The notes under the pieces are model-generated. The model saw only the letters and a list, made by a program, of their open reading frames with translations. It did not search any database and was not told the DNA's origin. Positions 38,475 to 58,725 of a stretch of DNA of 64,000 nt are shown here, in pieces. A program made the position numbers and the translations under genes. Position 1 is the first letter of the stretch. Each line of letters starts with the position of its first letter. The stretch is taken from NCBI GenBank assembly GCA_965645245.1, contig OZ287070.1, forward strand, positions 2,852,001 to 2,916,000. Reading direction: 5' to 3'. This stretch comes from Massalongia carnosa (taxonomy: Eukaryota).

Positions 38475-39600
38475 TTATGATGATGTATTTATACTCCGAT
38501 GTCACTTGCCGTAGGCCGGCCCATACGGGCAAAGCTATCTAAGTTATATTATATGGAAACCCTTTTTAAGGTGTAAAAACTATATCCCTTGATACCTGTC
38601 TGATGCGACACCGGGTCGATGCCGGACGGGAGACGCAGAGCGAGAAGCGTGTGAGGGCTGTGACGCCTTGTGAGATGAGAAGGAAAAGAGAAGTGAGACT
38701 ACTGTTGATTGTACAACAGTGTGGATGCCAGTGTGAATTGAGTCAGTAGAACTGTTTTCATTAGCCAAGCAGTTAATATCTTCAGAGTTTTTGAAGTTTC
38801 GGTCAGCTGTTGATAGTTTTTCGTGCCAGCGGCGCGAAACATCTGTTCTCTGTTGTCAATAAGTCTGCAGAACATAATTACGTGTTCTGGAGTTTATCTA
38901 TGCCAGCCACATGGGCAGGCCTGTGAGGTGACGGCGGGGACCCGTCGCTGGTAGAGGAAGTCAGCAAAACTGATCTTACCGGTGCGAACCTATGTTGTCA
39001 CGGCGCTTTCTGCCTTTTCCAGCAGCGTGTGTATTTTTAGTCTTTTTTTGCTCAAGGGACTGATTGAGCTATGGAGGGTTTGATGACACGATTTTGATAT
39101 ACGTACCACGGGTCGTCCCAGACTTTCAGCTGTCGTATTTTCAGTATCTGCAGTTGCTTTAGACGAGCCGACGCTGCTACAGAGACTTCACGGAGATGTG
39201 CCTAGGAGGGTTCGGACCATGGTAGGTCTGCTTTAGGTGAGGTGGTTAAACGATTTTTGCGTCGATCAGCAGGTTTTTGGCCCAGGTATGCTTCAACTCG
39301 CCCGGGGGGTTATTGAATGCGTTTACGGCCTACCTTGCCTCGGAGTTTGTTTACTATTCTGCTGCATGCGGAAGAAATAATTTTCGATTGACCTCCGGCT
39401 CTGAGACGATGTCTGGCCTGTGCCTGTATCGTGTCGAGATTTGCATCTATGGGTGCTATGTATGTCTCTACTTCAAGAACTGAAGTGGGAGTAGCTTTAA
39501 AGGTGCCAGCTATAGTGCGGAGAAAGTTGTTTTGTATAATGCTAGTTGACGTTTTTGACTTTATGGGAATGTGCCATACGGTTGACCTGTATTTCATGAC
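38475..39600 (-). mobile_element. 5'-truncated non-LTR retrotransposon (Tad1-like LINE), 3' remnant
   Basis: Post-RT motif QNNFLRTIAGTFKATPTSVLEVET, then VRTGKISFADFLY and a CCHC knuckle CPCGWHR*TPEHVIMFC; CAT-repeat-like tail near 38480. Confidence 0.8.
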
Positions 39601-39727
39601 CCGCATTTGAATTATCATTTATTACATTATACATTACGATTGACACGATTTGCTTTAATCATCATGTAAAATGTTGCATTACACGATGCGATAACAGGGT
39701 TGATATCTCGTTTATAACGAGCTCGAT

Positions 39728-41470
39728 TTAATTATCCTGCTCCAGATCTTCATCCCAATGTTGAGGCTTGCCCGTCAATTTGCGATATTGCTTCGCAATA
39801 TCACCCGGTTTAGTCAAAACATATTGCTTACCCGTCTTCTTATAAGAGAAGTTCCTGATAAACTCCTCGTTAGGAAAAAGCTCTTTGGCTATCATTGCAT
39901 CTCGCGCGTTGATGCTTTTTCGTCTTTTACGAATGACTTTTAACAACTCTGTTTGACTCATACGTTCCATATTTCCCGTCTTTTTCGCACGTCGCATATG
40001 TGCATTCCAAAAATCCTCTTTATTTGCGTAATTGCGTCGATTCTGCATGATTGTCATGGAATTACCTCGCACCCTCCCACGTTTCCTGATCGGGTTAGTA
40101 TTTAACAGGCTCTCTTGCCGTGAAACCTGCCCTGCATGTTGAATAGAACCGTGGCCCGTTATTCCGAACTATCCTGAAACCTCGCCCCATGTGTTCAGAC
40201 GTTCTTCCGCTGCCTTCAGTGCACTCCCAAACTCCTATATCCCGAATCCAATCTCAACGTCTCCACTATCCAAGCCTACGACTGGGATTGCCCAGCAGAG
40301 AGAGATTGCTTCGGCATGGAGAAAGGCGGAACAGGTCAAAGCGATCATGGTTAGGAAATTAGAACAGGAACAGAGATGAGGGCAAGTCAAGAATGGGGAG
40401 TTGGAAGCCATGGCTATAAAACCTATGTGGTTTCTCAGGTGTTTGGAGCTCTTCGTCGGACGTCTTGTATACTATCCCTAGACCTAGCTTTCTAAATAGT
40501 AACTCTTGTATATCTCCCTATCTGGACCTTGTCCGTGACAATGATACACTTTATTTCGTTTCAAAAGTATTCTTTAATAAAGTACTCGTCAATAAACATA
40601 CCTTCCAATTGCTATAATGTCAGTTGATAAGAGTCCATGTTTCTGACGTATGACCTTTGTATAACGTTCCCCAATAACGTACAGGTACGCTGACACCTCT
40701 CACATACACTTGCGCGGATGTTTCATCCTCCCAATCGTTAAACAACGCGCTCATATTTTCAGCACATTTGACATGCGGAGGAGCAGGCAAATTATTAATC
40801 GCGAAGGTCACTTGGCCGTGTGGCATGACAATCGTTGTTGTTTTCTTTTTCTTCGTTTGTGATGAGATCGCTGCATCTGCTGTTTGAGAATTTGCTCGTT
40901 TAGAACGAGACAAGGGTGCTAATGTTCCCGATTTGCCAGCTGTTGCTTCCTGCACAATTCTTTGAATTGTTTCTTCTAAGTTATCTGTAGCTTTATCTGA
41001 TGGACTAATGTAATGATGATGATGATAAGTGATCAATTGTTGTTTGCTCGTACTAGATAATAGAGTTTCTATACGAGAAAAGACTGGTCGAGATTCATTT
41101 CTTGAAACGAGCTCTTTGGAAATAAACGGATCACTATCATTGAGAACGAATGTGATAAAAGGTCGAGAAGGAGATAAAGCAGTATTAGAATTTGTCACAG
41201 AATCTGATATAGTGGTTGCATTCAGTCCAGCGGTAGTGGCTAATCTATGTAAGTAATTGTCTTCGATTAAGTCTAGCTCGTTATAACATACCGATCAGAC
41301 GAGCATCTTCCTTTTGTTCAATCATTGTTTTTTCACCCGCAAGATAATATCTAGGAGCAAATGCTACCATTGCTTCTCTTTGCTCAGAAGTACGAAAATC
41401 GTCCTCAGCGCGATCGTTACTAATAAGACATTTTCTAACAGCGTCTTGCACGAGGAGATTTCCTCGACCT
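39728..41470 (-). pseudogene. Spliced gene of unknown function (gene A), divergent from the YR-like gene; interrupted by a solo LTR
   Basis: ORF pieces 40620-41198 and 39728-40046 (DWED..GVSVPVRYWGTLY..W; FW..; FSYKKTGKQYVL..IAKQYR); GTATGT donors near 41291 and 40601; a stop at 40620. Confidence 0.6.
40052..40540 (+). mobile_element. Solo LTR (489 bp)
   Basis: TGTCATGG...CCGTGACA termini; TSD ATGAT at 40047-40051 and 40541-40545; TATAAAA near 40415. Confidence 0.9.
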
Positions 41471-42033
41471 GGAAATTATTTCTTGATTTTAAGAGGCATA
41501 TTTCGATTGAAAAGAGTAAGTTCACGACGAGTTTTAATATAACAAACGTTATCAAATAAATAAGTTGACGAAAAAAATTAACAATCATGTCGTTGGCTTA
41601 AAACAAATGTTTGCTTGCAAGAACAAGCGTTGTTTCTTAGTGTCAAATATTTTCACATTTCTTATGTTACACGTCGAGCTCGTTTCTTCCTTGTTTATTT
41701 ATCACGTTTTGATTATCAATTATTTTTAAATTTCGAGACCCTCAATATGAACTCGTCACAGCAAGAGGATTTTGTGTTGTCTTCTGATTTTCAGTCTATA
41801 ATTGATGCACAACTAGATGAATTAGATCAAGACGAAATAAACGAAGATTTTCAAGAACAAAGCTCAACAACAGCTGCGGAAGAGGATTTAGATTCTGAAA
41901 ACCATATCGATTTACCTTTAGATATGCTACGCAAAGCTTCTGAGGGTGCTCATGCCAAAAGTACACTGGCGGGATACAAAGGGTATTATTCTTTATGAAT
42001 ATGCTCTTTAATAAAGAGCACGTTTAAACTATA

Positions 42034-44597
42034 ATCGTCGGCTCGCTTACCTCCGGGATCCGACCTGAAAAAATGTCGACCGCATTTTAGTCGGGGAAAG
42101 CGGTTGCATCCCGGAAAGCGGTTGCATCCCCCCAAATTCAAATTTCTTCATCTTTTTAATCATTGACCAACAACCACATTGATTAAAAATCAGCCGATAC
42201 CGTACATAGCTTGAAAATCATCGCCGTCATCATCACCGTCGTCAAAATCATTGCCCTTGACTCCCCTGACCCCCTGACCCTCGTGATTCTCCGCTTACTC
42301 CGCATACCCCGCATACCCCGCATTCTAACAATCATTCGCATCTCCTGGTTGAAAAGATGCTTCCGAATCGAATTCTTTCAATGATTCTTCCAAATCGAAA
42401 GATACGAAATCCTCTCGTAGCCATGTTTCTCCTTCTGGAAGATCTGGAAGGATTGAATTATCTCCATGACCAGTGCTATCTACGATAAACGTGACATCTT
42501 CCTCATTGACATTGGCACGCGGATTCTTTCTAATTTCCTTCTTCGCTTCCTCAGCTATCCATACCTCATTCGTGGCCTTCCATAATGCCTCGGGGTCAGG
42601 AATCTTCTCATACATCTTAATTGGAATGGGACCGAGCATTTTCTGCATTTCTTTCAGCTGTTTAACTCGATCTCTTTCTGCTTTTCGAGCAGCCAATCCC
42701 TTGACATGCATTTCGTCTCTTTCTATTCGCCATAGCTTCATGAAGCTATTATTCGCTCGTTTCTCCTCAGCCTCTTGATCCTGTTGTAGTCTGATGGCTA
42801 TAGCCTGCTTTGCATCTTCCGCTGTGATTCCCAATCTTCCGGTTTCTGGTCTCAGACGTTTACGAGACATTCGTCTGTTATTTAACTGACTTCTTCTTGA
42901 TTCTCGATGCATTTCCAGCTCCATGCCATCGATAATTGCATTCGAAACAACTTCATTTGTATTGTCTACAAATGAGTCCCATTCCTCAGCCCGAGCGGGA
43001 TCACTCCATTGCATGGATTTTCTGATTTTCGGTCCCCATTGACTCAAACCATACTCAATGTCAGCTACTTTTGTCGGTTGGATTTGACGAGGTAGGGGTA
43101 GAGGTAATGAGGGCTCATTATTCAGACTGTTTAATGAATCATTGGGATCATTGGGATTGAAATTTTTCAGCTGACGAATGCATGCCTTTGGATCAATCGG
43201 CCACATTCCCGACTTTTCAAATGCATGCCGAATCGTAGAAGTCTTGAATGTATGATTTCTGATTTTAGTCAAGTCCTGTATAAATTGAGACAGAGAATAC
43301 TCGACAAATGACGACGCAACGACTTCCTCAATAGCTTTGCAATGCCAATGCTTATAAGGCTGAAATACGCCCACATCCAATGGTTGCATGCAATGAGTTA
43401 AATGCGGTATAAAGGGAAAGGGTCGAATGCGATTCTCATTGGCCAAAAGTGAAAATTCAGGGGTTGTATGACTGCCATGATTATCCATCAGCAATAATTG
43501 CCATTCCGCATCAGGTCCTGCATTTGTATGTTTGATAAGATGCTTCAAATATTCAATTGCTATCTTATCAGATGTAAAACCACTGTTCGAGGGCACGACA
43601 TACGTGCCCTCGGGCACACCTTCTAAAAACCATGTGGCCATGATGTCATGACCCTGTACGATGATCATTAGAGGGGGGGGATAGTCGCCGGCAGCATTGA
43701 TAGTCTCAATAACTGTCGCAGATATGCGATTTTCCGGGCTGACGGCGTAGAATTGTTTGATTTCCTCAGGAACAATAATTTCCTGACCCCTCATGCATCC
43801 AACCCGAAAACCAGCTTCATCAAAGTTCAAAATGTTCCGACTTTTTCGAATTTTCAACTCTTTTAACACCTCTCTATACCTTTCAAACCATTCTATCACA
43901 TCTGATTCTTGGGCAGCTTCATAACGAATCATTGCTAGTGGTTTTGTCTTTATTTTATGAAGTTTGTTACATTTCCACCAGCTCCGAAACCATCTTCTTG
44001 ACGGGCCTACCTCGAGGGGGTTATGGGCCTTTTTCAGACTTACAATAGCCTTGAAAACCATCTGTTGTGTAGGAATAATTCCATGCATCAATAAGGACTT
44101 AATAAAGCCAGTAATTGACCTTGCCTCATGCTCCCTCAGTATCTGATTTTGTCCTCCATTTTTCCTCCCTTCTGGTCGACGAATGGAAGACGTCAAAGTT
44201 TTGACGTTGATATTGTAGATTCTAGCTGCAGTCGTTTTACTTTCTTTGGGATGATTTGTCAGAAATTCCTTCGCCTTTTCCAATCTTTCCATGGGGTTGA
44301 GAGTGGAGACAAGGGAGGCGTCGTTATCCATGATACGAAAGGGGAGATTGGTTTGGGGGATTGATTCGAGAGGAAAGAATTTGAATTGATGATCAGTTGG
44401 GTCGGAGAAATAATTTTCAAGCTAAGTACGGTATCAGCTGATTTTTAATCAATGTGGTTGTTGGTCAATAATCAAAAAGGTGAAGAAATTTGAATTTGGG
44501 GGGATGCAACCGCTTTCCGGGATGCAACCGCTTTCCCCGACTAAAATGCGGTCGACATTTTTTCAAGTCGGATCCCGGAGGTAAGCGAGCCGACGAT
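42034..44597 (-). mobile_element. Fot1/pogo-like DNA transposon (pogo-2) inside intron 1 of the YR-like gene
   Basis: About 185-bp imperfect TIRs (42034-42218 and 44413-44597); TA TSD at 42032-42033 and 44598-44599. Confidence 0.95.
42325..44331 (-). CDS. pogo/Fot1 transposase (DD35D), intact
   Basis: 668 aa; NFDEAGF, LMDNHGSH, QPLDVG. Confidence 0.94.
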   Translation of the reverse strand: MDNDASLVSTLNPMERLEKAKEFLTNHPKESKTTAARIYNINVKTLTSSIRRPEGRKNGGQNQILREHEARSITGFIKSLLMHGIIPTQQMVFKAIVSLKKAHNPLEVGPSRRWFRSWWKCNKLHKIKTKPLAMIRYEAAQESDVIEWFERYREVLKELKIRKSRNILNFDEAGFRVGCMRGQEIIVPEEIKQFYAVSPENRISATVIETINAAGDYPPPLMIIVQGHDIMATWFLEGVPEGTYVVPSNSGFTSDKIAIEYLKHLIKHTNAGPDAEWQLLLMDNHGSHTTPEFSLLANENRIRPFPFIPHLTHCMQPLDVGVFQPYKHWHCKAIEEVVASSFVEYSLSQFIQDLTKIRNHTFKTSTIRHAFEKSGMWPIDPKACIRQLKNFNPNDPNDSLNSLNNEPSLPLPLPRQIQPTKVADIEYGLSQWGPKIRKSMQWSDPARAEEWDSFVDNTNEVVSNAIIDGMELEMHRESRRSQLNNRRMSRKRLRPETGRLGITAEDAKQAIAIRLQQDQEAEEKRANNSFMKLWRIERDEMHVKGLAARKAERDRVKQLKEMQKMLGPIPIKMYEKIPDPEALWKATNEVWIAEEAKKEIRKNPRANVNEEDVTFIVDSTGHGDNSILPDLPEGETWLREDFVSFDLEESLKEFDSEASFQPGDANDC

Positions 44598-44915
44598 TAG
44601 AGCATCTGTTAATAAATGAATATAGTCAATGGAAGATGTTTTCATCCTGGGTCAAGGATAATTTTTCTAAACATGAGATATCTGTGTTATATCCAGACAA
44701 AAATACTCCATATTTGATAGCTTATTGGACTTATCAAAATTGTAATACTCCTGAATCTGTTGAGTAAATGCATTATTCTTATATATTAATGAGCTCGTTT
44801 TTAATGAACCTGTTAGTAATAAAAACTCAATACTTGCTATTCCTCAAGATAAGTCATGGTCACATGCATATAAAATGCGCTCCGTATGCAATTAGAGGTA
44901 TGCACACAGCATAGA

Positions 44916-45309
44916 TGTCAAGGAATGGGCAGGGGATTGAACTAATGTTCCTAGGAATTGGATTGGGTGATCAAGATGTCTTTATTAATAAGGCTATAGC
45001 TAGGTGATGGATTGCTATACAAGACGTCGGACAAGGAGTCAACTATCTAATTAACTTGTCCTTCCTTTTATATTTGTCTCGAACCCCTTTGCATGAAGAT
45101 TCGATCAGTATTCATCTCCCCCTATTAGGAGACGTACGGCACGAAGGTTTGACGAGGTGTTTCACGATAAAAGGTGGAGATGAGGTTCTCCTGTCGTTGG
45201 TACGCTTTGATGGTGATGGTACAGCTTTGACCTGAAGCCGTTGAGAGGGGTCTAAACTCGATTTAGTTAATGAGATTCAGACTAAGCTGAATAGAGGAAC
45301 GGGAGCTTA
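44916..45309 (-). mobile_element. Truncated Gypsy-2-family LTR (inverted copy; first ~50 bp missing)
   Basis: Near-identical reverse complement of about 17899-18292; it stops at the AcademH-like TIR. Confidence 0.93.
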
Positions 45310-45924
45310 GTTGCCTCAGTACCTCAGACGTGCGTGGCTCTATGAGCCGGCTAAGCCCCTCCGGGTTAGCCTATTTTCGCTAAGCCCCTTCGGGTTAGCG
45401 TCGCTAATTCCCTTCGGGTTAGCGGCCCTTTAGCTGACTACGCATGCTACGGGCGGCACGTCTGAGCGCAAAACTCTGTATTTTTGTCAGATCCGGCTTA
45501 TTTTGGTGCGCGCTCATACAAATTTTTGGCTTAACCTCAAAAATCATCAAGAATCAAGTTGACGGCGGAATCAACAACGCGCAACGACATTTCATAAATT
45601 ATGTAATAATAGAAATGATGCTTTGATATACATTCTATCGATTAATCAATATTTTAATTACATATCGATGCAAAATTGAGTCGCAATATCGATCTCGCGA
45701 CGAGGACTCGACTTTGACTCGAAATTTCGACACCACCACAGCAGACTCAACGGGTCACTAGCTCCAGTTTTTCATTGTCGGCGCTTCTGATCATTAATCT
45801 GATCCTCCGAGCGTTGTTTTCGAAAGCCTAAAATCGTTGAATGTGATGAACTTGCTTGATGTGCGTTTTGCGGGCTAAGAATCCAACTCGCGAATCGTCG
45901 AATATCGCTCGCGAACACATCGAA

Positions 45925-48100
45925 ATGGACGATCCTATAGCGTCGATAACTCGCGAGCAGGTGACGACCGTGATTTTAAGTAAATTCGGCTTTTATCCAA
46001 AGAATGAGCAAGTTGACGCTATCATGACTTTAGCACAAGATCAAAAGGATCTGATTTTTATCGCCAAGACTGGATTTGGAAAGAGTATTGTCTTTCAAGC
46101 TATGCCATTAATGTTCTCTTGTCTTAAGATCGCTTTAATTATCATGCCTCTCAAGACCTTAGAAGCTCAACAGTGCAAGAAATTGAGCGTTATCGAGGGA
46201 TGCAAGCCTTTCGTGTTGGACGGTGATAGTAATAATTCTTCTAATTTAAAGTTAATTCGTGAAAACAATTATACGCATGGTGTGTATTCAAATTATGATT
46301 GAGATAAATATAAAAACTTACTCGTTAATATGAATAGTTTTTACTAGCCCAGAGATAGCGACGTCAAAGCTGTTTAATCAGGAGGTTCTGAGGCATCCAA
46401 GTTTCTTCTTGAATTTATGTCTTTTAGCTCTTGATGAGATGCATCTTGTATCCGAATGGCGAGATTTCCGGCCCGAATACTTCAATCTCGGTGTGCTTCG
46501 TACACGATTACCAGATGGTATTCCTTTTCTGGGTGCGTCTGCAACGCTGGATCCAAGAACCCTAGAGAGCGTTAAAGATCGCTGTGGCTTTGATAACGAA
46601 AGTACTGTTATTCAAACAGCGCTTGATCGTCCAGAGATATACATACAGACAAGCAGTCTACAGCGGCCTATGAACAGCATGATCGATCTTCAACATCTTT
46701 TACCAACACGGGCTGAGAGTCCTTTTGATATTCCGAAAACGATTATCTTCATGGATTCAATTTCATCTATCAAAAAGGCGTGTGCGCTAATGAAAGTATG
46801 GATGAATCAATTGTCCTATCCAATTGAGGCTGCTAGTTGGGTCGCGCCTTTCTTTTCCGACATGGCCACCCAAGACAAAGAAAGGATTGCGGCTCGCTTC
46901 GAAATGCCCTCGAATCAATGTAAATTTCCTCGAATCCTGATCGCAACGGATGCATACGGGCTTGGTATTGATAATCCAGACGTTATGAGAGTTACGCAAT
47001 GGCTGCTACCCTCGTCAATGGCGAAGCTATACCAACGTTTAGGTCGTGCTTTGCGTTGCAGTCGAGGACAGGCGCATTTTACTCTTTTGCATCCTTCTTG
47101 GTGCATGGGTCCAAGAAGCGGATCAAAAATGGACGAACAGGACGGATATGACGCGGGAATCGAGATTGAATCCAAGGCCAGTAAACGCCGCATCAATCAA
47201 AAGGATGCTGATCGGCGACGAGATATGCCACCGGGTCTTTGGGAGATAATCAATGTGCCTTCAGATGGTTGCGTTCGAGGTATTGGCTTGAATTTCTTCA
47301 ATGATAAAGTGTATCCAACGTCGGCCTATGTTAAGCCGCAACCTTGCTGTTCAATTTGCGATCCAAGTTTTCAGACATCAACAGCCGCCAATGAGATGTT
47401 AAATAGAACGGCCGAGCGTGACTCGTCTAGGCGGCCTTGGTTCACCCTTAAACTTCGAGAATGGAGGGAGGCCAAGGCGCAGGAAAAGTTCCCAAATTCA
47501 CATATGCGATACTTCCCATCATTGATAATGCCCGATGAGGTACTGAATTCTTTGACCACTTGGGCGGATCAGATTGTGGACGAGCCCACCATGCGGCGAT
47601 GGATTGGTAACACATGGACTGGTATTAGGCCCTACGGCGCCGAGCTTTTAGAAATTTTAAAGCGGGGTCAAGCAATGAGATTAGACGAGGGAGACATGTT
47701 CGAGGAATGGAAACGACACAACGACATAAAGAGAAAACGATTACCCAGCCTAACATGCAACTCCGCCAGTATTGAATTTGAGGAACGGAGGAAAAACTGG
47801 ATGATCAAACAAGGATATATGTCGAGAAAGGTTTTTAAAAAGCGAAATGCGGTCAAGAAGAAAGTCTCGAAGGAAAGCGAGAGCACGGAGCCATCGGGCG
47901 AGAATCCTGCGCCTAATCACAATATCTCCGATGCGGCGCTCGTTGTTGACAATGTTGATGCTCTTAAATCATCGATGAAGGCATCAAAGACCAAAAAAGC
48001 GCCTCGAGATCCTATGGAAGCGTTGTCGCTGAATGTACCCATGGCCCTTCCTCCGACACGATCTAGACAAGAAAGAAAGTGCCCCGTCCGCTACCTCTGA
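45925..48100 (+). CDS. RecQ-like SF2 helicase, about 705 aa (intron 46280-46337)
   Basis: AKTGFGKS, IMPLKTL, FTSPE (created by splicing), DEMH, SAT, ATDAYGLGID, QRLGRALR, a Cys cluster (CVR..CCSIC) and an HRDC-like LREWR segment. Confidence 0.9.
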
Positions 48101-48159
48101 CTCTGTAAAGCCGCGCGGCGCGGATTTACATGACTAGGCTATCTCGTGGTATCGATGAT

Positions 48160-50838
48160 TTAATCAAAAAACATACCGCCGGATATCTCGAGACGGGCCA
48201 TTGAAATGACAGGGCTGTCGGGGACCTGCTTTGTTTCATTGACAAAATCGGGCTCGGCTTCATACTTACCCTCAAGGTCGTCTGTTGAAATTTCTTTTGA
48301 AATTTCTTCGGAAAGATACTGCTGATTGTATTTTAATACATTTTCTCCAAGTTTCTTCAATCCCTCAACATAAAGATTAGCTGTTGGATTAGTTGAAAAT
48401 CGATCATAGCTTCTTTTACAGAGTGATTTATGCGCTAGTGCCGTAGCCATGCCCCACACATCCTCTGCGGCCGATTTTGCTGGATGCCTTGAAGAGTTGA
48501 CTCTTCCAAAGTAAAACTCAACGATTTCTTTGAGCTTCATAAGATATGGACCGTTGAGTGCCCAGTTCTCGAGCAAGGTGTCACTATACTTTGAAAAATA
48601 AGATCGCTCGTGCTGGAACGTCTTGAGGTTATTGTTTAGTATCTCTAAAAGCCGATCAGTCTCAAAACTCGATTCTTCGTCACCGCGTAAATTGACAAGA
48701 CTATTCATTAAAATACTTTCCTGTAGCCTTATGGTCGCTGCGGAAGAATCAATCGCATGAAGGGTGTATAGAAGAGCTTGCGCATATTTCGGGGTGCCAG
48801 CTACGCTTGCCTGAAAGATCACCGTTGCGTGGCGCAATGCGTGACGAAGTAGTCCAATATCCGCATATTTGATTGCGTATCGAAGTGTTAGATACGATTC
48901 AACGTGATCACAGAAGTTCTGATGATTCTGAAATTGTTGATCAAGCGTTGGAGGAAGCATATCTATTGACGTTGAGGGTAATTCCGCGTGAAGTTTGCGA
49001 GATATCCTGCCCAACATATTCATCCAGGTGCCATCCTGCCCGCAAGTCTGCGCTGTGAGCCACGAAATAGTTGCTTCGATTCGCTGCGGAGCATATCCAT
49101 CCTTTCGTAAAAACCTAATCCACGTCCCAACGATTCTAGCTTGATAGCTCTGAATGATCAGATCCTCTAAGGCCTGGAAATCGTTCGGCTGCACGACACG
49201 AGCGCGGCCCCACCGATCGGCGGCATATTGAAGAGTCGAAGGATCAACCGGCTGGGCCTCTCCCCAATGTATTTTATGAATAAGCTGCAGCATGTTAAAG
49301 CGAAGATGCCATAACCCTAATCCCGGTAAAATCCAGTCGAACCGATCGAAAGATTGCTCCGATATCCCACGACGTAATTCCTTGACAGATTGCATTCTCG
49401 ACCATGTCTTGAGGTCACCATAGATAAGCCGAATGACGCTCGCAAACGTCGAGTCATCCTCCTTGAACTTGAACTGTCGCACAAATATATCCTCCAATAT
49501 TTGAATATTATTAGATGTTGTGCTCTCATCCTTCATGACTGGTTTGATAGGAATGTAATTGGTCTTGTATTTTTTCATCTTATTCAGCACGGGCATTGCA
49601 GTCGACCAAGGAAGTTGAACGTCGCCGATCTCTGGGCCATATAGCGCTCGAATCGCTGACTCTAGATGATGAAGACGAATCTAGGTACGCGGTGCATTAG
49701 CGATTGAGCGCGGTATATACACCTCGTCCTGTATTGAACTCACCTGCATCTCGAGATCACCAGTCTCCAGCTTTCGCGCAATTCTTTCAGCTGATAAAAG
49801 ATGCGTGGCGGGGCGCCACATATCCTGCCTCAAAGCGCCGGCATCGAATCCTTGCCCCTGGAAAATTAGAGCGGTAGTGATTGATCTGACGTCTCTATTA
49901 TCCCCCGTGCGCTCTCCTCGTTTACCTTCTGCGAAGTCAAAGTTATCGTATGTCAAGATCATGTTTGAGCCTTGTCCTAGCATCTGAACCTTTCGTTCGG
50001 CCTCCTTAATCAAGGACAACATGCGCCGCTGCAGGGTAGTATATGACATCGTCAGGTCAAAATGACAGAGTGTATCTAGAACTCGCCGCCTCGCCCCACC
50101 TTGATAAATATAAAGGCCTAAGACGGACTGAATATTGGTCGCCTTATTTGGTCGCAATTTGTGACAAAGCATTGCCAATATAACGGTGTGCCGGCCGCTG
50201 GGAGAATCCAACGTCACATCGAGAGCTTCCTGCGGGCGAGCCTCGCGACAAACACTATCAATTAGCTCAAGCCATCGTGGCGCCAACTGCTTGGCGGCAG
50301 ATGCAGCAAGTTTAATAGCCTCCAAGGTCCCAAACTCGACTGTCGCAGAGGGCGGCTGGAAAGGGCCAAAGGCTGCGTGATCTGCCAAAGCTTTGATTTC
50401 TTCACGAAGCACATCCGCGGCCCAAACCCATCCTCTCTCGCGAAGGATAGTGGATATTCTACCAGGCCCAATGAGGCTTGAAAAGTCTTCTTGCCGCACA
50501 ATATCGACATAGACAAAATCGAAGAGCTGGCCTTGCGCCTTTCGCATACTATGACGGGCTCGATTCTTACAAAGTGTTGATAAAAAATCTTTTACCGACC
50601 AATTTAGAGAGCTCAGAAATTTAAGCACCTCAACCAGCTTGTCGTAATCTGATATGCGCCGGCGGTGGCGTTTCGCGCCTCCATTTTTTTCAGGTAAGGC
50701 AGGAGGGGAGGAGGAAGAGGGTGAGCTATCATTACTGCCTGACGGCGATGGGTGGGGCCGCTTGAGCGCACCGGCGGGAGTCAAGGGACTTGTCCGTAGG
50801 TCGGTAAGTGGCGAGGAGGGGCCCCCGACAAGAGCCAT
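48160..50838 (-). CDS. Academ-type DDE transposase, about 871 aa (intron 49681-49743)
   Basis: A GTGAGT..GCTAAT..TAG intron joins the two ORFs in frame. Motifs TYDNFDF, IYGDLKT, LGLWHLRFN and ETDRLLE are candidate D, D, H and E. Confidence 0.8.
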
Positions 50839-51309
50839 GGCTTTCGTCAGATAGCTTCAATCTAGATAAATCATACAATACCATTGATTGGCCGTCGTTA
50901 TTCATATCATCATGATCTTTGTAACTCAATGTAATCGCGCCACATGAAAATAATCAGTTCATCAACCTCAAAATTGAGCGAATGCGAACAATTTATCACT
51001 TAATCGACTTTCACATCGCTTTTCTTAGCCTGACAGTAGTTATAACACATGCTTATCGAGTCATCCATCTTGAGAGGTGCGTTTTTGGTATAAAATACAG
51101 TCTCTTGTAAACTAATACGACCCTAATCATTGTATTAAATCCATAAAAGGAATGGTTGCACTGCTAAAATTTTTATTACGCGGATCTGGCCGTAATTTTG
51201 AGTTTTGCGCTCAGACGTGCTATCGCACTGATGTTAGTCAGCAGCGACGCTAACCCGGAGGGGCTTAGCCGGCTCATTGAGCCACGCACGTCTGAGGTAC
51301 TGAGGCAAC

Positions 51310-51735
51310 CGGGTGACTGATAATCCGGATGCTTAGTCATGATAAGGCGGATAGCAATACTAAGCCATCAGCAATCAGCCTGTTAGGCAGCAACTGAAGC
51401 TATTCAGAAGCCTCGATCTCATGGGAGGCCTGGGACGCCTAGGAGACCTCAGCTGAAGGCAACAAGGCTATCTGCTAGACCTCAGCTGAAGGCAACAAGG
51501 TTATCTGCTAGACCTCAGCTGAAGGCAGCAAGGCTATCTCCTAGACCTCAGCTAAAGGCAACAAGGCAGACAGGTAACCAGACAAGTAGTTAGTAAATAG
51601 GACCCCAAGGGGTATATAGAAAGCTCGATTCCCATCTTCAGGGAATCAGCTTTTAGCTTTAGCACCTACCAATCTATTAGCAGTCACACTGAGCATTATA
51701 ACCCATAAGGACTAGTGTCTACTGTCCCTCTTATA
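51310..51735 (+). mobile_element. Truncated LTR-like fragment of a different family
   Basis: Internal tandem repeats and TATATA near 51613; it ends where the YR-like coding sequence resumes; no 5' TG end. Confidence 0.55.
51444..51567 (+). repeat. 33-bp tandem repeat, about 3.8 copies
   Basis: Unit AGACCTCAGCTGAAGGCAACAAGGCTATCTGCT. Confidence 0.92.
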
Positions 51736-52004
51736 GTCTCAAAGTTATGATACTTTGATAATCGTTCGTTATTTAATGAATTGGAACGACGTTCCTACAA
51801 GACGACGAGATTATTTCATGAATCTGGAAGCATAGATCGGAGTAAAATGTTCTTATTGTGGTCGAGCTTGCGATTGTGCATAAAGAACTCCTTAAATACT
51901 AGTTCATGAGCTCGAATAATGAACACCAGGAGGATGATTTCAATCTGTTCTATAATGATAAAAAGTTAAGTGCTCATTTAGATAAACTCTTTTCACCCGA
52001 AATC

Positions 52005-52674
52005 CTACTCCTCATCATCATCCTCCCCCCCTCCCTCCTCTTCACCCTCCTCCTCACTCCTCTCCTCCTCCTCACGTTCCTCCTCTCTCATCTCCTTATC
52101 CTCACTGAAAGGATCGGACAACACTTTCTCAAAAAGTGGATCATCACTTTCGCCCAGTTTAGTCAAAAGAGCGACAGCAGCATCCACCCTTTCGCCTCTA
52201 CTAGCAATCTAAATTCGATTAAAACGAGTTCGTTTATAATGAGCATGTTCGGATGATTTACTTTTCTATAAGACTATTTACCCAGTATGGCCTCAAAAAG
52301 ACGAACACAATGCTCTTGTCGACCTCTAAGAGTCAACTGCTCTTGCGCAACTTTCTATAAACATTAAATATTAGGTCGAGCTCATATATAACGAGTATAT
52401 ATTAACGATTTTACTTTGGTTTTGGCATTTGAAATGATTTGCATCTCGAACATTCATTGTTCGAGCATAGACGCACCATGAGCACATCCGCAAGGCAAGA
52501 GATCGACCTTGTCTAAGCCCAACGGAATATTCTCGCCCTTAGGCATCTCCTGCATTCGTTTTAAACGAGCTCATCCGTAACAACAATCATCATTTATAAC
52601 GAGCTCATACCTTTTGTGACCGATAATATCTATGACATCGGGCATAGCCCGGATTCTGTCTCCAGAATTTCGCC
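52005..52674 (-). pseudogene. 3' part of a multi-intron gene of unknown function with an acidic tail (gene C)
   Basis: Three short GT-AG introns (about 52553-52611, 52357-52414, 52210-52262); exons include KFWRQNPGYARCHRYY and LLPCGCAH; Glu/Asp tail; in-frame stops; cut by the Gypsy-4 LTR. Confidence 0.55.
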
Positions 52675-53067
52675 TGTTATGATCTACCTAGAGACTAGTC
52701 ATAGGGACACTAGAAACGAATACAATCAAGATGAAGAAGAAAAGATCAATTGAAAGACAAATCTCGCTCCTATATAGTCCAGCGGCCCCTAGCCCTCGAC
52801 CGACTCGTGGAAGGATCTAGAAGGTTCGAGTATTGACCAGCTATGGAAACCGTTAATGCCGCGATGAGTCTAGCGCGCACACGCGATCCCGTGATGTGAG
52901 GGATAAAACGAGTTCAATTTCAATAGCCTAGTTCTACACCAAAATCTTCAGACGAAGTCTAAAAGCTTTACTCGGGCGGAGTTCTATATAACCCATGAAA
53001 AGTTGGTTCCTCGGCACATTACCTAATCGATGCTAGTCTGATGTCAGGTGACCTCAGGACCCTGACA

Positions 53068-56000
53068 CTACCCCTCCTCTGAGACGGCGGCTCCGGACGT
53101 CGATGGTTGACTGTTATTCATGAATAGGACATCCTTTGGGGCGTTGGGTTTTCCTTTATTGTCTGTATGAAATTTTCTGATTTCTTCTTTGGCGCGAATG
53201 AAATCAGTCCATGGCTGCCAAGGTGGGTTTGCGTTCCAGTCATCCCATGAGCCGATATAGGTTGCTTTATACTGAGTGCCGTATTTCTTAGTTTCACGGC
53301 AGTCGACGATTTCGAGGACTTCATATTCTTCATGAGGACTGGATTCGGCGTCTTCTTGAATCAGTATCGGGGGACCCGGTTCAATAAGTTGACCGGGGAA
53401 TGGGTTCGTAGGAGTCAGATGAAGTTTCCATGGATGAAATATGGGTGTGAGCCCCACTCTTTTCAAGTTTTCGGGAATTTCCAATTCATAGGCCTTGTTA
53501 TCTATGTTTCGGATGATTTTCCATGGCCCCGCGTTTTTGGAACTCAGGGAGCGACTCTGCTTGTCGACGGAGAAATCTTTGGTGTTGACATATACCATGT
53601 CTCCTATCTTGTAGTCTGGATGTGGGGCCCGCGACTCATTGGCATATCTCATCTGATCATCCTGTGCCCAGGTTAGGTGCTCGATAAGCCATTTCGTCAT
53701 GGCTTCTTGTCGGGCGGTTATTTTGTCTGCCGACATCAGTTCCGCGCGTCCGGTGACATTTGAGTCAAAAGGCTGAGGCGGCTCCGAGCCACTACGAGGG
53801 TGATAACCGTGATCAGCGAAGAAGGGGGACATTCCGGTTGAAGCGTTCGTATGATTATTGACTGCAAATTCGGCATCTGGTAAGTAGTCCACCCAGTCGT
53901 CTTGAGCATGTCTGACGTATGCTCTCAGGTAGTTCTTCATAACCTTATTCGCATTTTCGGTTTGACCATCTGTTTCTGGATGATGCGCGGAGGACGGTTT
54001 CGATTTGACTCCTAATCGCTGACAAATTCGCTTCCACAGATGGGCTGTCAATTGCGTCCCGCGATCGTGGACGATGGAGTTTGGCAAGCCGTATGTTGAA
54101 AAGACCCGACGTTTGAGGACTTCTAGTACGTCCTTCGTGCCTATATCCACCATAGGTTCGTACAACCTACGTTTGGTCAATCTGTCCACGATAACCAAGA
54201 TATTTTCGTACGTCCGGCCCCGTCTGTGACATTTGGGCAGTTTGACTACAAAGTCCAGAGATAAGTCTGTCCATTTTCTTTGAGGTATGGGTAGTGGGGC
54301 TAATAGTCCCTGTTTCTGATCGTTGTACACCTTGGACCTTCGGCATGTAGAGCAGTTAGTAGCGTATCTTCGACAATCATCCTTCATGGACATCCAGAAA
54401 TAGTTCTCCAGCATTTTGGCATACATGCCTCGATACCCGGGGTGTCCTTGCATCGGGGGATTATGATGATCCGATAAAAGACGCAGCTTCAGCTTGTCGA
54501 AATTCGCAATGAAGAGGCGTGTTTTGTAGTATAGTCTTTCGTGACGGACTTCCAAGTCACCCATCGCCAGTCTCAGCCCGTTGCTTAGAATTTTATCGGG
54601 CAATTTCTTCAGATTTTCCAACTTAGCCTTCATGACTTCCTGAATCATTGCGTCTTCTTGATATGCCTCCGCTAAAAGATTTTCTAATAATTCATCAGGC
54701 TTTTCTGCATCCGAATCATCATTCGAATTGATTGTGAACTCCTCTACCGTCAAGTCCTCTACTTCCTCATCCCTGATTTGATCGGATGAGTCAGTAGTAA
54801 TGTTGTCTTCAACCCGTTCTCGATTGGCCATGGATCTGGTTGTCACGTACAGCTTCAGGTCCTGTTTCACTTCATCGTCCAGCTGATTTTCTTTTAGCAG
54901 CACCTGATATTGATATCTGGTGCGATCATCCTCCGCGTCCATCGGCAGATCTTGCTCTCTTCTGGTGAGGGCGTCCGGTTTGCCCCCTTGCTTGCCTGGT
55001 CTATACATAATGCGAAAATTATATTCCGCCAGCATCTCAGCCCAACGCACTTGACGGCGATTTAGTTGTTTCAAAGTCATGAAGGTCTCCAGATTCTTAT
55101 GATCTGAGTAGACCATTGTTGATTGCTCCACTCCCGCTAGCTCCGGTCTCCACATGACGAAACTTTCTACGATGGCTAGGAGTTCTTTATCGTAGATCTC
55201 ATAATTGCATTCGGCGGGGCTCATCTTCTTCGAGAAACAAGCCACGGGTTTCAGAACGCCTTCATGCATCTGAGAGAGTATCCCCGATACTACGAAGTCA
55301 GATGCGTCTGTCTCCACCCAGGTCTCTAGCCTTGGGTCGTAATGAGCAAGAATCGGCGCAGAGGTAAAAGAAATCTTCATGTCTTCGAAAGCTTGCTGAC
55401 ATTCAGTGGTCCACACGAAGTCTTGATACTTGGTGCGTCTCTTTCCGCCTTTCGTGACATATTGCTCTCCGCGGGTTAGCTCGGTCAGACACTTCACCTT
55501 TTCGGAGAATCGCTCAATGAAGCGACGATAGAAGTTAGCGAATCCAAGAAAGGACTGCACCTCTTTTACTGACGCGGGCGTCTTCCATTCTAGTCTGGCC
55601 GTCACCTTTTCTGGGTCCATTCTAACGCCATTCACCCCCACGAACATTCCGAGGTATTTGACTTCGGAGACAGAGAATTCACACTTGTCTATGTCCAGTT
55701 GAAGTCCTCTTTCTTTCAGACGACGAAGTACCTTCAGTACCTGCTCGATGTGCTCCGTTTCTGTTTCACTGAACACCAGTACGTCGTCCAGATAGGCGGT
55801 GACGAAATAATCTAAGTATTCTCGCAGGGAGTTATTGATATAGCTCTGAAATGTTGATGGAGCGTTGCATAGTCCGAAGGGCATCACAAGATATTCAAAT
55901 TGACCGTATCGAGTATTGAACGCCGTGAGCCACTCTTGTCCCTCTTTAATCCTCATCCTATTGAATGCATGAATGACGTCCAATTTAGTAAACCACTTTG

Positions 56001-57136
56001 CTTTGGCGAGTTTCGCCAATGTCTCGCTGATCAATGGAATGGGGTATCGACTTTTCTCCGTGATATTATTCAGATCTCGATAATCTACGCAAAAGCGAAG
56101 ACCCCCGCCTGGTTTCCTGACCAATAGTACCGGCGCGGCCGCCTTTGACGAGCTCGGACGAATAAACCCTTTTGCTAAGTGCTCATCTAGATATTTTCTT
56201 ACCGCGGTCAATTCCTGTTCGGACATGGGCCGATAATTCTTGATGAACGGGGGCTCGATCCCGGGCATCAAATTGATTTCGTGATCCTCTTTTCGATGAG
56301 CTGCCAACTCGTCTGCCTTAGCCCTCATGAAGACTTCAATCTCGCCATGATAGGCCTCGGGTACTCGTTTTTTCAATTCTTCCAGAGTATACTCGACTTT
56401 GTCTTTCATGAACTTCTCATGATCGTCGCTGGTGACTGCGTTGATACTTGAAGCAGTCAGAAGCTTCTTCTCGTACCTATCTAACTTCTTGTTGAGCTTT
56501 TCCCTCGGATAGAAACAGTAAGTCTGATGACCCGATCTTCGAAGAAGTTTCATAAATCGCTTCGGGGTGAGGGACTGAATATCGAAATTTTCAAAGGCCT
56601 CGTTCTTTGCTGAGGCAGTCGTTTCCTTCTCCAAGATTGTGGATTCAAATTTTGAGACTGAATGAGATCGAGGTGCGCATCCCTTACTGACGCACCGATT
56701 GGAGAACGTCATGGTGCGTTCAACCCAATCAATGTGAGGGTTATGCTCCTGCAGCCATCCATCACCGATGATCAAGGTATGATTACCTATGTCGGCCAGA
56801 TAGCAGAATAACTTTTCCTCATGATCTCCGATTCTGACGGGAACGATAACGGCCTTATCAATGATTTGATGGACTTTTCCATCCCCAAGTTCCAGTCTGA
56901 CCCTGTCTTTTTTTTAGTCTAATGGTCTCTAGTTTTCTTTTGCGCGCAAAGGATTCATGAAGAAATTGAGCTTCACTTCCGTTATCGATCATCAACTGAT
57001 TTTCATTAGAGGCTATACTACATCTAAATAAAAGATGCTTGCCCGGAACGAGATGATCGACAGAAAGAACAGATGCTCTAACAACCCTTAATGAAACTTC
57101 TCGACATTCCTGATGGCGACTATCATCAGGAATCAT
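53068..57136 (-). CDS. pol: Gypsy-3 Pol (PR, RT, RH, IN, chromodomain); one frameshift in an A-run near 56910
   Basis: MIDNGSE protease motif; 1235-aa ORF with YLDD, ETDASD, IN, GPWKI and EYEVLEIVD chromodomain. Confidence 0.92.
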
Positions 57137-58725
57137 TCTTTTTCCGAGTCCTCGGACTCGGATGTGTCTTCTCGAATGGCGACTCTACTGAGATTCACTG
57201 CTTGCCTAATGCAACAGGGGTCTCGGCCCCTATGCCATGATCCTCTGCACGACCAACATCGGCCCTGTCGTGACAGAGTCTCTCGTTCCCCGTCCTCCAA
57301 CTTGGGCGGGTGAAGCGTCCCCTCGTACCAAGCTCCTACCCATCCTTCCGGTTTGGTCGAGACCTGTCCGAATTTCGAGTTCGGGTTGGCGGAGATGGCG
57401 GAGTTGGTCGTAGTCGCTTTTGGTTTGACTGTGATCGAGGTACTGGAGGTGGCGGTCGTGGTTTTGTTTAAACCACAACCGACGGAAGAAGAAGGAGAAG
57501 TCGTCGTTTTCGCGGGCTTCTGAGATTCCGACTTCGCGTACTTCTGATTCATCTCCTTTCTTCCCTGTTCGATTTTCCTGGCTTCATGCAAGAGGGTTTC
57601 TAGACTGATGAAGTCCCGTCCCAATAGAGACAGCGCGATGTTTGGCCGCAGGGTGTCCTTGAACGTCTCAATTCTCTCATTCGCGGGGGTTTTTGCACGT
57701 TGCCAGAGTTTGAACATTCGATGATAGTATTCAGTCACCGTTTCATCTTTGTTCATGCTTATTTCTTTCAATTCCTTCTTCGCGTCCTTTGTCAAATATG
57801 CTATCCCGAGATAGCTCTCAATTTCCTTGAAGAACGTATTCAAAGAGAGAGTGGGACCGGCATCCACTACCCAGGTGTGTATGGCGTCGAAAATGGGATC
57901 CTTCATCTGCGATAAGGCGTAGTCGATTTTCAACTCCTCACTAGTGTACATTGGGGAGTCGGTTCTGATTTTTCTTTCCACCGTAAACGCCCATGCACTA
58001 TAGGCGTCTGAGTTGGAACCGTCGAGGGCCTCCTTCGGGTTGGTGCCTTTGGGTCGATAATTGCTTAAGGGGGCAGCGACGGCGGATTGATCTTCAGTTT
58101 GACCAGTCGATGAGGTCGACGTCTGAGTAGCTTCGCGAGCTAGACGTTTCATCTCTGATATTTCACGAATGAGGTCCGAGTTTTCCGCTTTGACCTTCTG
58201 AGTCTCCAATTTTTCAGCCGCGATATCCTCCTCAAATACTAGTCTCTCGTGATCCCAGCTCTTTATCATTCGGGTCCATTCTGCCTGTAGACCTTTTAGA
58301 TCTTTGTTTCTTTTTTTCAAGTCCTGATATTTCTCGATCAAGACCTCATGTTGTAGGAGCGTGCCGGCTAGAACAGTGTACCATATGTCGCCGTCTCCCT
58401 TTAGGACGAGGGCCCTTCTCAACTCTTCTCGATTGGCCACCTTGATGATCATAGCTGATTTCGACGGATTGCTTTCCGTCAGACTTCGATAAATGGCATA
58501 ATTGCTTATGTCGATTTTCGGTTCTGAGGTCGGGGCCTCGATCTTCGGTTCCCTGCCTTTGTCTTTGTTTGTCGGCAAAACAGTGTCATTTCCCACCTCT
58601 TCGTCGGCGGGTTCATATTCGCCTGGTATGCTCTGTGTCGATTTTCGCGACATGGAGCGAGCTCTAGTGTTGAAGGCCAGCCCCGAGGGAGCGACATCTC
58701 TGCTGGATGATTCTAATGAGTTCAT
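57133..58725 (-). CDS. gag: Gypsy-3 Gag
   Basis: 530 aa directly after the 5' LTR; CWSCRGSWHRGRDPCC knuckle. Confidence 0.9.
   Translation of the reverse strand: MNSLESSSRDVAPSGLAFNTRARSMSRKSTQSIPGEYEPADEEVGNDTVLPTNKDKGREPKIEAPTSEPKIDISNYAIYRSLTESNPSKSAMIIKVANREELRRALVLKGDGDIWYTVLAGTLLQHEVLIEKYQDLKKRNKDLKGLQAEWTRMIKSWDHERLVFEEDIAAEKLETQKVKAENSDLIREISEMKRLAREATQTSTSSTGQTEDQSAVAAPLSNYRPKGTNPKEALDGSNSDAYSAWAFTVERKIRTDSPMYTSEELKIDYALSQMKDPIFDAIHTWVVDAGPTLSLNTFFKEIESYLGIAYLTKDAKKELKEISMNKDETVTEYYHRMFKLWQRAKTPANERIETFKDTLRPNIALSLLGRDFISLETLLHEARKIEQGRKEMNQKYAKSESQKPAKTTTSPSSSVGCGLNKTTTATSSTSITVKPKATTTNSAISANPNSKFGQVSTKPEGWVGAWYEGTLHPPKLEDGERETLSRQGRCWSCRGSWHRGRDPCCIRQAVNLSRVAIREDTSESEDSEKE

Follow-up and report, generated by a model that had tools for sequence, protein, structure and literature searches.

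Introduction

Fungal Cryptons contain introns, and the CryptonF DNA transposons of fungi are reportedly the subject of a 2003 paper by Goodwin and co-workers. In CryptonF elements the tyrosine recombinase (YR) and a GCR1_C domain belong to the same protein, and the element carries 6-bp terminal direct repeats, as described by Kojima and Jurka (2011, PMC3212892). The same paper names Cbf2/Ndc10, Gcr1 and Hot1/Msn1 as host genes derived from Cryptons (PMC3212892). Starship captains are DUF3435 YRs encoded at the 5' end of a large cargo element. They include the Tangerine family of Lecanoromycetes, and most captains of this family lack the core-binding domain (PMC13486527).

In this work, a 64,000-nt stretch of Massalongia carnosa DNA (the window) was analysed, in which an earlier note, made from the sequence alone, had proposed a three-gene mobile element built around a split YR-like gene. 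The interval is an AT-rich piece of lichen-fungus DNA that was cut up by transposons and holds a dead gene copy without its middle. We read it as the dead copy of a lineage-restricted, low-copy locus, a decaying relic and not an active three-gene element; the locus is possibly Crypton-like, with a probability of roughly 0.4.

Results

Transposons and the AT-rich remainder

The interval was found to consist of transposable elements (TEs) piled up on some 3.2 kb of low-copy, AT-rich DNA. The remainder of the 64-kb window consists of ordinary TEs. The following insertions were mapped:

40052-40540, minus strand: solo LTR that begins with TG, ends with CA and has a copy of the 5-bp duplication ATGAT at each side, within the last intron of gene A
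42029-44602, minus strand: pogo element (Tc1/mariner type) with 193-nt terminal inverted repeats (TIRs), 96% complementary, and a DDE_1 transposase (E 1.6e-12), within intron 1 of the plus-strand gene
44915-45311, minus strand: LTR fragment that is missing the initial 53 nt and matches the LTR at 17897-18293, reversed in orientation, with 99.2% identity
45311-51308, no strand assigned: 6.0-kb TIR element with 61-nt TIRs, a DEAD/Helicase_C ORF on the plus strand and a DUF6589 ORF on the minus strand
51309-51735, no strand assigned: piece of another multi-copy repeat, recognised by depth and by loose ends at 51308 and containing tandem repeats of 33 nt (51444-51566)

The first four agree with the TEs listed previously; the last had been taken for a second LTR fragment and is a piece of some multi-copy repeat, not necessarily an LTR. 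The solo LTR is absent from one contig each of the runs X1, X2 and X4, where 40048 is joined to 40550. The insertion in intron 1 shows the characteristics of a pogo or Tc1/mariner element, namely the DDE_1 transposase, long TIRs, a TA target and empty sites in relatives. TA is found at both ends, at most 1 nt from the empty site in run X5, and joints free of the element (42028/42031 to 44598) were present in 4/4 runs (X1, X2, X4 and X5). A tblastn search of its transposase against plasmids gave no match.

Subtraction of the repeats left 3,171 nt with a GC content of 0.31-0.41, in good agreement with the 3.2 kb of AT-rich, intron-bearing DNA estimated before. There was no RIP signature, and RIP was rejected as the source of the AT-richness on values of 0.65-0.78 for TpA/ApT and 1.18-1.67 for (CpA+TpG)/(ApC+GpT). 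The GC3 of the AT-rich genes was 0.28-0.30, compared with 0.40-0.53 in the adjacent TE genes. The remainder carries two divergent genes, of which gene A lies on the minus strand and the other, the plus gene, on the plus strand. This DNA was found in only a few closely related lichen-fungus assemblies.

The plus-strand gene and its missing middle

The plus gene is composed of the following parts:

41747-41982, plus strand: exon 1, ATG at 41747, an 83-aa ORF with an acidic N-terminus, ending ...AKSTLAGYKG
41983-44625, plus strand: intron 1, GT..AG, containing the pogo element
44626-44763, plus strand: exon 2, QWKMFSSWVKDNF...NTPESV
44764-44816, plus strand: intron 2, canonical GT..AG
44817-44883, plus strand: exon 3, ..NKNSILAIPQDKSWSHAYKMRS, followed by GTATGC
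51737-51835, plus strand: C-terminal piece, SQSYDTLIIVRYLMNWNDVPTRRRDYFMNLEA, then TAG at 51833-51835

The ATG, exons 1-3 and the GT..AG introns are joined in phase as the earlier note had described. Two details of its C-terminus did not hold. The proposed four-Cys tail (CSYCGRACDCA) sits downstream of the in-frame TAG at 51833-51835, and the W placed ahead of SQSY is missing from the window, where the match to the intact contig begins at 51736. The exon-1 ORF has three relatives at at least 90% identity (P0008-P0010). Its full 83 aa are kept in 3/4 cluster members, with 3-4 residue changes relative to the window copy, and P0009 is a frameshifted version.

An uninterrupted locus is present in a related contig from a lichen metagenome run (X5, contig record 24, 4,810 nt), which carries the same locus without the pogo element. 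The contig aligns to 40541-42028, then to 44598-44912, where the match on the exon 3 side ends, and then to 51736-52674. Between 44912 and 51736 it holds 918 nt that match nowhere in 39000-53000. Since the contig spans both sides and contains this additional DNA, the N- and C-terminal pieces, which are collinear on it, form one locus and the window copy is deprived of its middle. Both the single split gene and the central deletion that had been supposed are thus confirmed. In the window the plus gene is dead: pogo lies in intron 1, and 6.8 kb of repeat DNA stands in place of about 0.9 kb of the middle.

The DNA of the window and of the X5 contig differs by about 4.5% over 40541-42028. Copy number was judged by distinct contigs per place, not by read depth. 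X5 yielded one contig at each listed place of the locus, at a depth of 348.5, similar to the low-copy contigs of that run. In X1, X2 and X4 several variant contigs per run were observed at the same places (up to 4 at 40965), and in X1 a frameshifted variant occurs together with intact ones.

Gene A

Gene A is a real minus-strand gene beside the plus gene, with these parts:

39731-40042, minus strand: last exon, NRRNYANKEDFWNAH...EDLEQDN, stop at 39728-39730, 3' splice site between atcatgcag and aat
40043-40601, minus strand: last intron, hosting the solo LTR
40602-41239, minus strand: main exon, a 224-aa ORF with an in-frame TGA at 40620-40622 in the window copy
41240-41291, minus strand: intron of 52 nt
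41292-41370, minus strand: first coding exon, with the first in-frame ATG, the predicted start codon, at 41370

Its 3' flank, about 130 nt of AT-rich DNA, extends as far as a LINE-like fragment that starts at about 39599. In the window the gene is dead, with a premature TGA and the solo LTR in its intron. The proteins P0002 and P0003 have KG at the N-stop of the window, and sequence variants were seen at 40622/40623 among metagenome contigs. The ORF is retained in 3/3 cluster members, and the last-exon ORF has a relative (P0012) at 96% identity. Between the window and X5 copies 19/192 residues differ and a 38-residue block (146-183) is unchanged; against a DNA difference of about 4.5%, this suggests little constraint outside that block.

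A word-based protein search with the main exon returned only its own 90% cluster, and a scan of JGI metagenomes with the same exon gave 211 pattern matches, 0 of them confirmed. For the last exon, the ESM Atlas gave no usable match, and an AlphaFold2 model of its ORF from a 2-sequence alignment reached a pLDDT of 52, which is too low for a search by fold. The C-terminal part of gene A may bear a loose resemblance to GCR1_C, and no match to this family (PF12550) was obtained at E ≤ 10 in the main-exon ORF (P0002) or in the last exon.

Gene C and the borders of the locus

The third proposed gene corresponds to:

51990-52560, minus strand: 'gene C', three ORF pieces, MQEMPKGENIPLGLDKVDLLPCGCAH.. 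/ KVAQEQLTLRGRQEHCVRLFEAIL / IASRGERVD... with an acidic tail

Enumeration of GT..AG introns gave no clean model linking the three pieces, only contrived ones, so that gene C is doubtful. The window and X5 show 0 gaps in 939 nt over this region, and therefore window-specific frameshifts relative to X5 do not account for the missing model. The limits that had been set at about 39599 and 52674 turned out to be TE insertion points and not the ends of a unit, and the X5 contig extends 851 nt past 52674. No terminal repeats of the AT-rich locus were found, and when all pieces were compared with the window by tBLASTn, no second copy emerged. Element termini, target duplications, copies in other contexts and signs of mobility were likewise not seen. 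A motif centred on GAGCTC recurs in non-coding DNA of each of the three genes, and 8 of the 18 GAGCTC sites in the window fall within the 3.17 kb.

Homologue and profile searches

In a collection of 15 billion proteins, the ORFs of the locus formed clusters of 3, 4 and 2 near-identical sequences, every sequence being confined to a single contig, and related ORFs sit on contigs of 0.90, 1.63, 2.02 and 2.85 Mb. All queries were short exons of 25-78 residues, so the negative results that follow are weak. No YR, SAM-like, DUF3435 or GCR1_C family was found in Pfam with exons 1-3 and the C-terminal piece at E ≤ 1, nor in a second Pfam search at E ≤ 10. The PHROGs, which are rich in integrases, gave nothing relevant for the short exon queries, and phmmer against the PDB, with plus-gene exons 1 and 2 only, gave nothing below E 0.26. 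Word-based searches for longer proteins containing exon 2, or the C-terminal piece with its TAG read as X, returned none.

Exhaustive all-against-all HMMER with exon 2 yielded only 2 matches, both taken as spurious: a bacterial Laminin_G/Big_9 repeat protein, and a protein that lacks a matched stretch and whose Pfam matches are all scattered and fragmentary. The top ESM Atlas score for exon 2 was 0.85, to the unrelated DUF6541. The parent protein collection lacks the 43-aa ORF of exon 2 (Met to stop), hence short exon ORFs are probably missing from the protein library. The 83-aa exon-1 ORF, which is in the collection, would be the better HMMER query.

Features compatible with a tyrosine recombinase

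The plus gene contains, in order, S-T-x3-Y-x3-W-x2-F-x2-W, PYLIAYWTYQ and SWSHAYKMRS. This series has what we take to be the spacing of core-binding helices in eukaryotic YRs. In the C-terminal piece, the Tyr of ..IIVRYL.. is located 20 residues ahead of the stop and is a candidate catalytic residue. The W/H-to-Y spacing, usually 9 residues in YRs, deviates from this value at the C-end of the plus gene. By arithmetic, the 918 nt and their flanks offer coding room for a catalytic domain of about 290 residues, and it is in these 918 nt, missing from the window, that R and HxxR of the catalytic tetrad of YRs (R-H-R-Y, as R...HxxR...Y) are expected. The motif and the order of the pieces fit an N-terminal helical core-binding part and a near-terminal Tyr, and pairwise alignment to Cre of phage P1 did not stand out from shuffled sequences (z -0.2 for the N-part, 0.7 for the C-terminal piece). 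Based on the helix motif, the protein size and the Tyr 20 residues from the stop, the plus gene may tentatively be called Crypton-like, at somewhat less than even odds.

Discussion

According to the preferred reading, the intact plus gene would encode about 400-440 residues. An acidic N-terminus would be followed by a predicted four-helix domain of the core-binding type; the catalytic domain would come next, in the part missing here, and a Tyr would lie about 20 residues ahead of the stop. Such a gene would encode a simple tyrosine recombinase of the Crypton type or be derived from one that does. The middle was probably lost via deletion or ectopic recombination between repeats inserted in the gene; the flanks of the 6.0-kb TIR element are unlike each other and show no target duplication.

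The earlier note had proposed that gene A, the YR gene and gene C move as a unit and constitute an undescribed mobile element. This has become improbable, since gene C lacks a clean model, both borders are TE insertion sites, the intact contig continues for 851 nt past 52674, and neither terminal repeats, target duplications nor copies elsewhere were seen; the YR identity of the plus gene is, moreover, that of a candidate. More than one version per sample exists in X1, X2 and X4, as a mobile element would have, but a single thallus with several genotypes may account for these variants. Similarly, the four contigs of 0.90-2.85 Mb would point to dispersed copies if some of them share one assembly, but they may come from different assemblies. 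The GAGCTC-centred motif common to all three genes also speaks for a unit. An extension of this idea receives little credence from us: a 'split Crypton' family restricted to lichen fungi, small, intron-bearing and AT-rich, would join a Crypton-like YR gene to the divergent gene A, possibly its DNA-binding half, with the palindromic ACGAGCTCGT-type motif, recurring in every non-coding segment, as protein-binding or recombination sites.

A serious competitor, also short of an even chance, is an orphan host gene pair, young, fast-evolving and lineage-specific, in a TE-rich compartment; there would be no kinship with recombinases, the motif would be due to chance and the genes would never have moved. 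The limitation of homologues to near-identical copies with no family match, in clusters of 3, 4 and 2 sequences with a single contig for every sequence, the single X5 contig per listed place at low-copy depth, and the low constraint on gene A outside one block are all consistent with it. The helix motif, size and C-terminal Tyr are, however, YR-compatible and in the right order, and the variants within X1, X2 and X4, one of them frameshifted beside intact ones in X1, together with the GC3 difference from the neighbouring TE genes, also argue against such a pair. The single-copy appearance in X5 would likewise suit a YR-derived host gene, comparable to Cbf2/Ndc10 and Gcr1 (from CryptonF), immobile and wrecked by TEs here. 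The introns and the divergent partner gene agree with this origin, and domestication of CryptonF in fungi is documented (PMC3212892). It is nevertheless a long shot: a frameshifted P0009, the deletion in the window and the TGA of gene A are unexpected for a needed host gene, and orthologues outside the narrow group were not found.

The window offers an example of how a small, lineage-specific locus is destroyed through nested transposon insertions and deletions. The locus resembles CryptonF in its possible YR-only recombinase, modest size, fungal host, low copy number and lack of TIRs or LTRs of its own. It differs in that no GCR1_C was found in any locus ORF searched, the YR core is missing from the window, the neighbouring gene A lies on the opposite strand, and TE insertions are found at the two edges of the AT-rich DNA, where CryptonF would have 6-bp terminal direct repeats. 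DIRS and Ngaro YR retrotransposons presumably share the S-T-x3-Y-x3-W-x2-F-x2-W N-terminal helix pattern with the plus gene; unlike them, the AT-rich DNA has no RT/RNase H, gag or split direct repeats. In contrast to Starship captains, there is no DUF3435 match and no giant cargo element is visible. The core-binding-like part, which most Tangerine captains lack (PMC13486527), is the only part preserved here. Like the Crypton-derived host genes, the plus gene would be a single-locus gene with introns and a putative YR-like fold, possibly immobile; whereas Cbf2/Ndc10, Gcr1 and Hot1/Msn1 are conserved and essential, it occurs in only a few close relatives and is broken in several of them. If the intact gene is a tyrosine recombinase, it would represent a second, non-Starship YR lineage for lichen-forming fungi, with a two-gene layout that is unusual and a palindromic motif that stands out.

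Structure of the locus

After subtraction of the inserted elements, 3,171 nt of AT-rich DNA (GC 0.31-0.41) remained between 39600 and 52674, and no RIP signature was found in this remainder. GC3 was 0.28-0.30 in the exons of the plus-strand gene and in the main exon of gene A, its divergent minus-strand neighbour, as compared with 0.40-0.53 in the TE genes. The earlier note had dissected the interval into insertions, and this was borne out by the element map:

40052-40540: solo LTR bounded by TG..CA and flanked on each side by the duplicated ATGAT
42029-44602: pogo element with 193-nt TIRs and DDE_1
44915-45311: LTR fragment, 99.2% identical to 17897-18293 (reverse), first 53 nt of the LTR missing
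45311-51308: 6.0-kb TIR element (TIRs of 61 nt, 98%); ORFs with DEAD/Helicase_C and with DUF6589
51309-51735: 427-nt piece of another multi-copy repeat

The TIR element encodes a RecQ-like helicase on the plus strand and, on the minus strand, an ORF of about 897 aa split by one stop; the second half of this ORF matches DUF6589 (E 2.3e-62), which may be the transposase of the element. The flanks of the element do not match, the left one being the LTR fragment and the right one another repeat, and they show no target duplication. Within the repeat fragment at 51309-51735, a 33-nt unit is present in three and a half tandem copies (51444-51566; 93-96% alike). The supposed ends of the locus proved to be insertion points, since the AT-rich DNA gives way to a LINE-like fragment at its left edge, near 39599, and to LTR-like sequence (TGTTATG...) at its right edge, from 52675.

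The plus-strand gene was read as follows:

41747-41982, plus: exon 1, from the ATG
41983-44625, plus: intron 1, GTATTA...ATATAG (about 75-80 nt when the pogo is removed)
44626-44763, plus: exon 2
44764-44816, plus: intron 2 (53 nt)
from 44817, plus: exon 3, reading ...DKSWSHAYKMRS, then GTATGC

On re-reading, the spliced peptide given previously was matched exactly. The C-terminal piece is an ORF at 51737 that reads SQSYDTLIIVRYLMNWNDVPTRRRDYFMNLEA and then TAG. The four-Cys tail that had been ascribed to the protein is excluded from the ORF of the window copy, because CSYCGRACDCA stands downstream of this TAG; the stretch may be intronic or 3' UTR.

An intact copy of the plus-strand gene

Contigs of four sequencing runs were aligned to 39000-53000; the runs with the locus came from two coded organisms and from one run labelled 'lichen metagenome' (X5). 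A 4,810-nt X5 contig matched 40541-42028 and continued straight to 44598-44912, without the pogo. Past 44912 it carried 918 letters that have no place anywhere on 39000-53000, and the match then resumed at 51736-52674, followed by 851 nt more. Because this contig spans both pieces with 918 nt between them, exons 1-3 and the C-terminal piece belong to one locus and are collinear in it; about 0.9 kb is missing from the middle of the gene in the window copy, the central deletion that had been proposed. Pogo-free joints were present in the other three runs (X1, X2 and X4) as well as in X5, and an LTR-free joint (40048->40550) in X1, X2 and X4. The middle was probably lost by deletion or by ectopic recombination among the repeats inserted in the gene.

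Copies and their spread

Several distinct contigs covered the same places of the locus in X1, X2 and X4, and a single one covered each listed place in X5. A letter other than that of the window was found at 40622 in three contigs of X1 and four of X4; at 40965, the count was four contigs in each of these runs. Such multiplicity may reflect either paralogues or several genotypes within one sample. In exon 1, one X1 contig showed a 2-nt deletion at 41921, beside undeleted X1 versions. It fits the frameshifted, 64-aa ORF of an exon-1 relative on a 1.63-Mb contig (P0009), so that the plus-strand gene is broken in one or more other copies too.

The cluster of the exon-1 ORF had four members, three of them on Mb-sized contigs (0.90, 2.02 and 1.63 Mb) and one on the 4,810-nt Logan contig; the 2.02-Mb contig carries the relative P0008 together with P0003 of gene A. 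The last-exon ORF of gene A had one relative, on a 2.85-Mb contig. Every cluster sequence was found on one contig each, and the Mb-sized contigs could belong to one assembly or to several. Summed contig depth, which is not a copy number, was far higher on the TIR element than on the adjoining unique DNA in X1, X2 and X4, and was close to that of single contigs in X5. On the pogo it was very high in X1, X2 and X4, and X5 gave no cover over 42269-44136; by contig cover, the pogo family may have invaded or expanded in a lineage-specific manner.

Genes A and C

When the main exon of gene A was compared with a collection of 5.8 billion clusters, the sole match was P0002 (90% identity), which sits on a Logan contig of 4,810 nt, the length of the X5 contig. 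The main-exon cluster had three members: P0002, P0003 (2.02-Mb ENA contig) and P0004 (0.90-Mb contig), the last identical to the window ORF. The window ends in ...TLIN-stop, as against ...TLIKGHYSNWK in P0002 and P0003, where the reading continues to a GTATGT donor and the next exon (NRRNYANKEDF...) follows in phase beyond the intron in which the solo LTR sits. Because both relatives read through into this exon, gene A of the window carries a nonsense change. The TGA (40620-40622) is either private or confined to a minority: KG stands at this place in P0002 and P0003, and at 40622 the other letter was found in all X2 and X5 contigs that cover it and accounts for most of the X1 and X4 depth. 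Window and X5 differ in 19 of 192 residues of gene A and are the same at residues 146-183. No Pfam family, GCR1_C included, was matched by gene A at E<=10, and the AlphaFold2 model of its last-exon ORF (pLDDT 52) was too uncertain for use.

Gene C consists of three minus-strand ORF pieces, for which enumeration of GT..AG introns gave no clean model; as a gene it is unproven. Window and X5 align without gaps in this region. The acidic piece is overlapped in antisense by a leucine-rich ORF of 117 aa on the plus strand. The codons right after the TAG at 51833 would be linked to this ORF in phase by a possible plus-strand intron (GTAAAA...ATGAGCTCGAATAATGAACACCAG) whose end is at 51931 (within 51843-52256); either strand could code.

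A motif of the non-coding DNA

A partly palindromic motif centred on GAGCTC (ATGAGCTCGTT..TAATGAA / TTTATAACGAGCTCAT, also written ACGAGCTCGT / ATGAGCTCGTT) occurs in almost all introns, UTRs and spacers of the AT-rich DNA:

39707-39731, 41275, 41676, 44791, 51908, 52215-52233, 52378 and 52556-52608: GAGCTC motif sites

Eight of the 18 GAGCTC sites of the window fall within the AT-rich 3.17 kb, at about 16-fold the density found elsewhere; all except one of these eight are non-coding. Both introns of the plus-strand gene share ATTATTCTT.AT. The motif may be a repeat of the introner type, a protein-binding site or a trait that introns of this fungus have in general, and the window offers no other host gene for comparison.

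Surroundings

The 64-kb window is fungal and nearly all transposon DNA. Self-comparison made LTR pairs and nested insertions visible, and Pfam domains of Copia, Gypsy, pogo, Tc1, MULE-SWIM and Pif1 helicase were found among 28 further long ORFs outside the interval, none of which was an ordinary host gene by Pfam. The rest of the window (1-39600, 52675-64000) contains:

1763-1993 / 7361-7591: LTRs of a Copia element, nested
8994-10739: second pogo
52895-53068 / 58771-58944, and others: LTRs of Gypsy elements, nested
within 1-39600 and 52675-64000: Tc1-like elements, a SWIM/MULE-like ORF and a Pif1-helicase fragment

These elements mostly have long open frames, without RIP signature.

Identity of the plus-strand gene

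The pieces of the plus-strand gene were placed in no family by Pfam or PHROGs, by phmmer of exons 1 and 2 against the PDB, by the ESM Atlas with exon 2 or by pairwise comparison with Cre. Word-based protein searches gave no placement for exon 2 and the C-terminal piece, and exhaustive HMMER of exon 2 against 1.84 billion representatives returned two matches, both taken as spurious. These negatives are weak, since each query was one short exon, and ORFs of this kind from unannotated fungal assemblies are probably missing from the library: the parent collection does not contain the 43-aa Met-to-stop ORF of exon 2.

The N-terminal part shows the pattern S-T-x3-Y-x3-W-x2-F-x2-W, then a hydrophobic helix and an S-x-S...RS stretch, which we take to be a pattern of the core-binding domains of DIRS- and Crypton-type recombinases. 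The C-terminal piece has a Tyr 20 residues from the stop, and a Tyr at about this distance is a trait of simple tyrosine recombinases (YRs). The missing piece is long enough to accommodate a catalytic domain of about 290 residues. On these three features, a YR-like plus-strand gene is a tentative reading, to which we assign a probability of about 0.4-0.45. The earlier note's observation held in its essentials and has gained outside support; the mobile three-gene unit is unsupported, and the full claim of an undescribed YR element of three genes seems improbable. If the central piece of the intact copy is a recombinase, the locus would be of more than modest interest.

Comparison with known systems

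In a literature search of limited extent, no gene pair of this type was found described from lichen fungi. DIRS/Ngaro elements require RT/RNase H, and the AT-rich DNA differs from them in having none. CryptonF elements, according to PMC3212892, combine a YR and GCR1_C within one protein and are bounded by 6-bp terminal direct repeats, whereas no ORF of this locus gave a Pfam match to GCR1_C. Starship captains have DUF3435, to which the locus gave no match. According to PMC13486527, captains of the Lecanoromycetes-specific Tangerine family mostly lack the core-binding domain; here, in contrast, the part that has been kept is the core-binding-like one.
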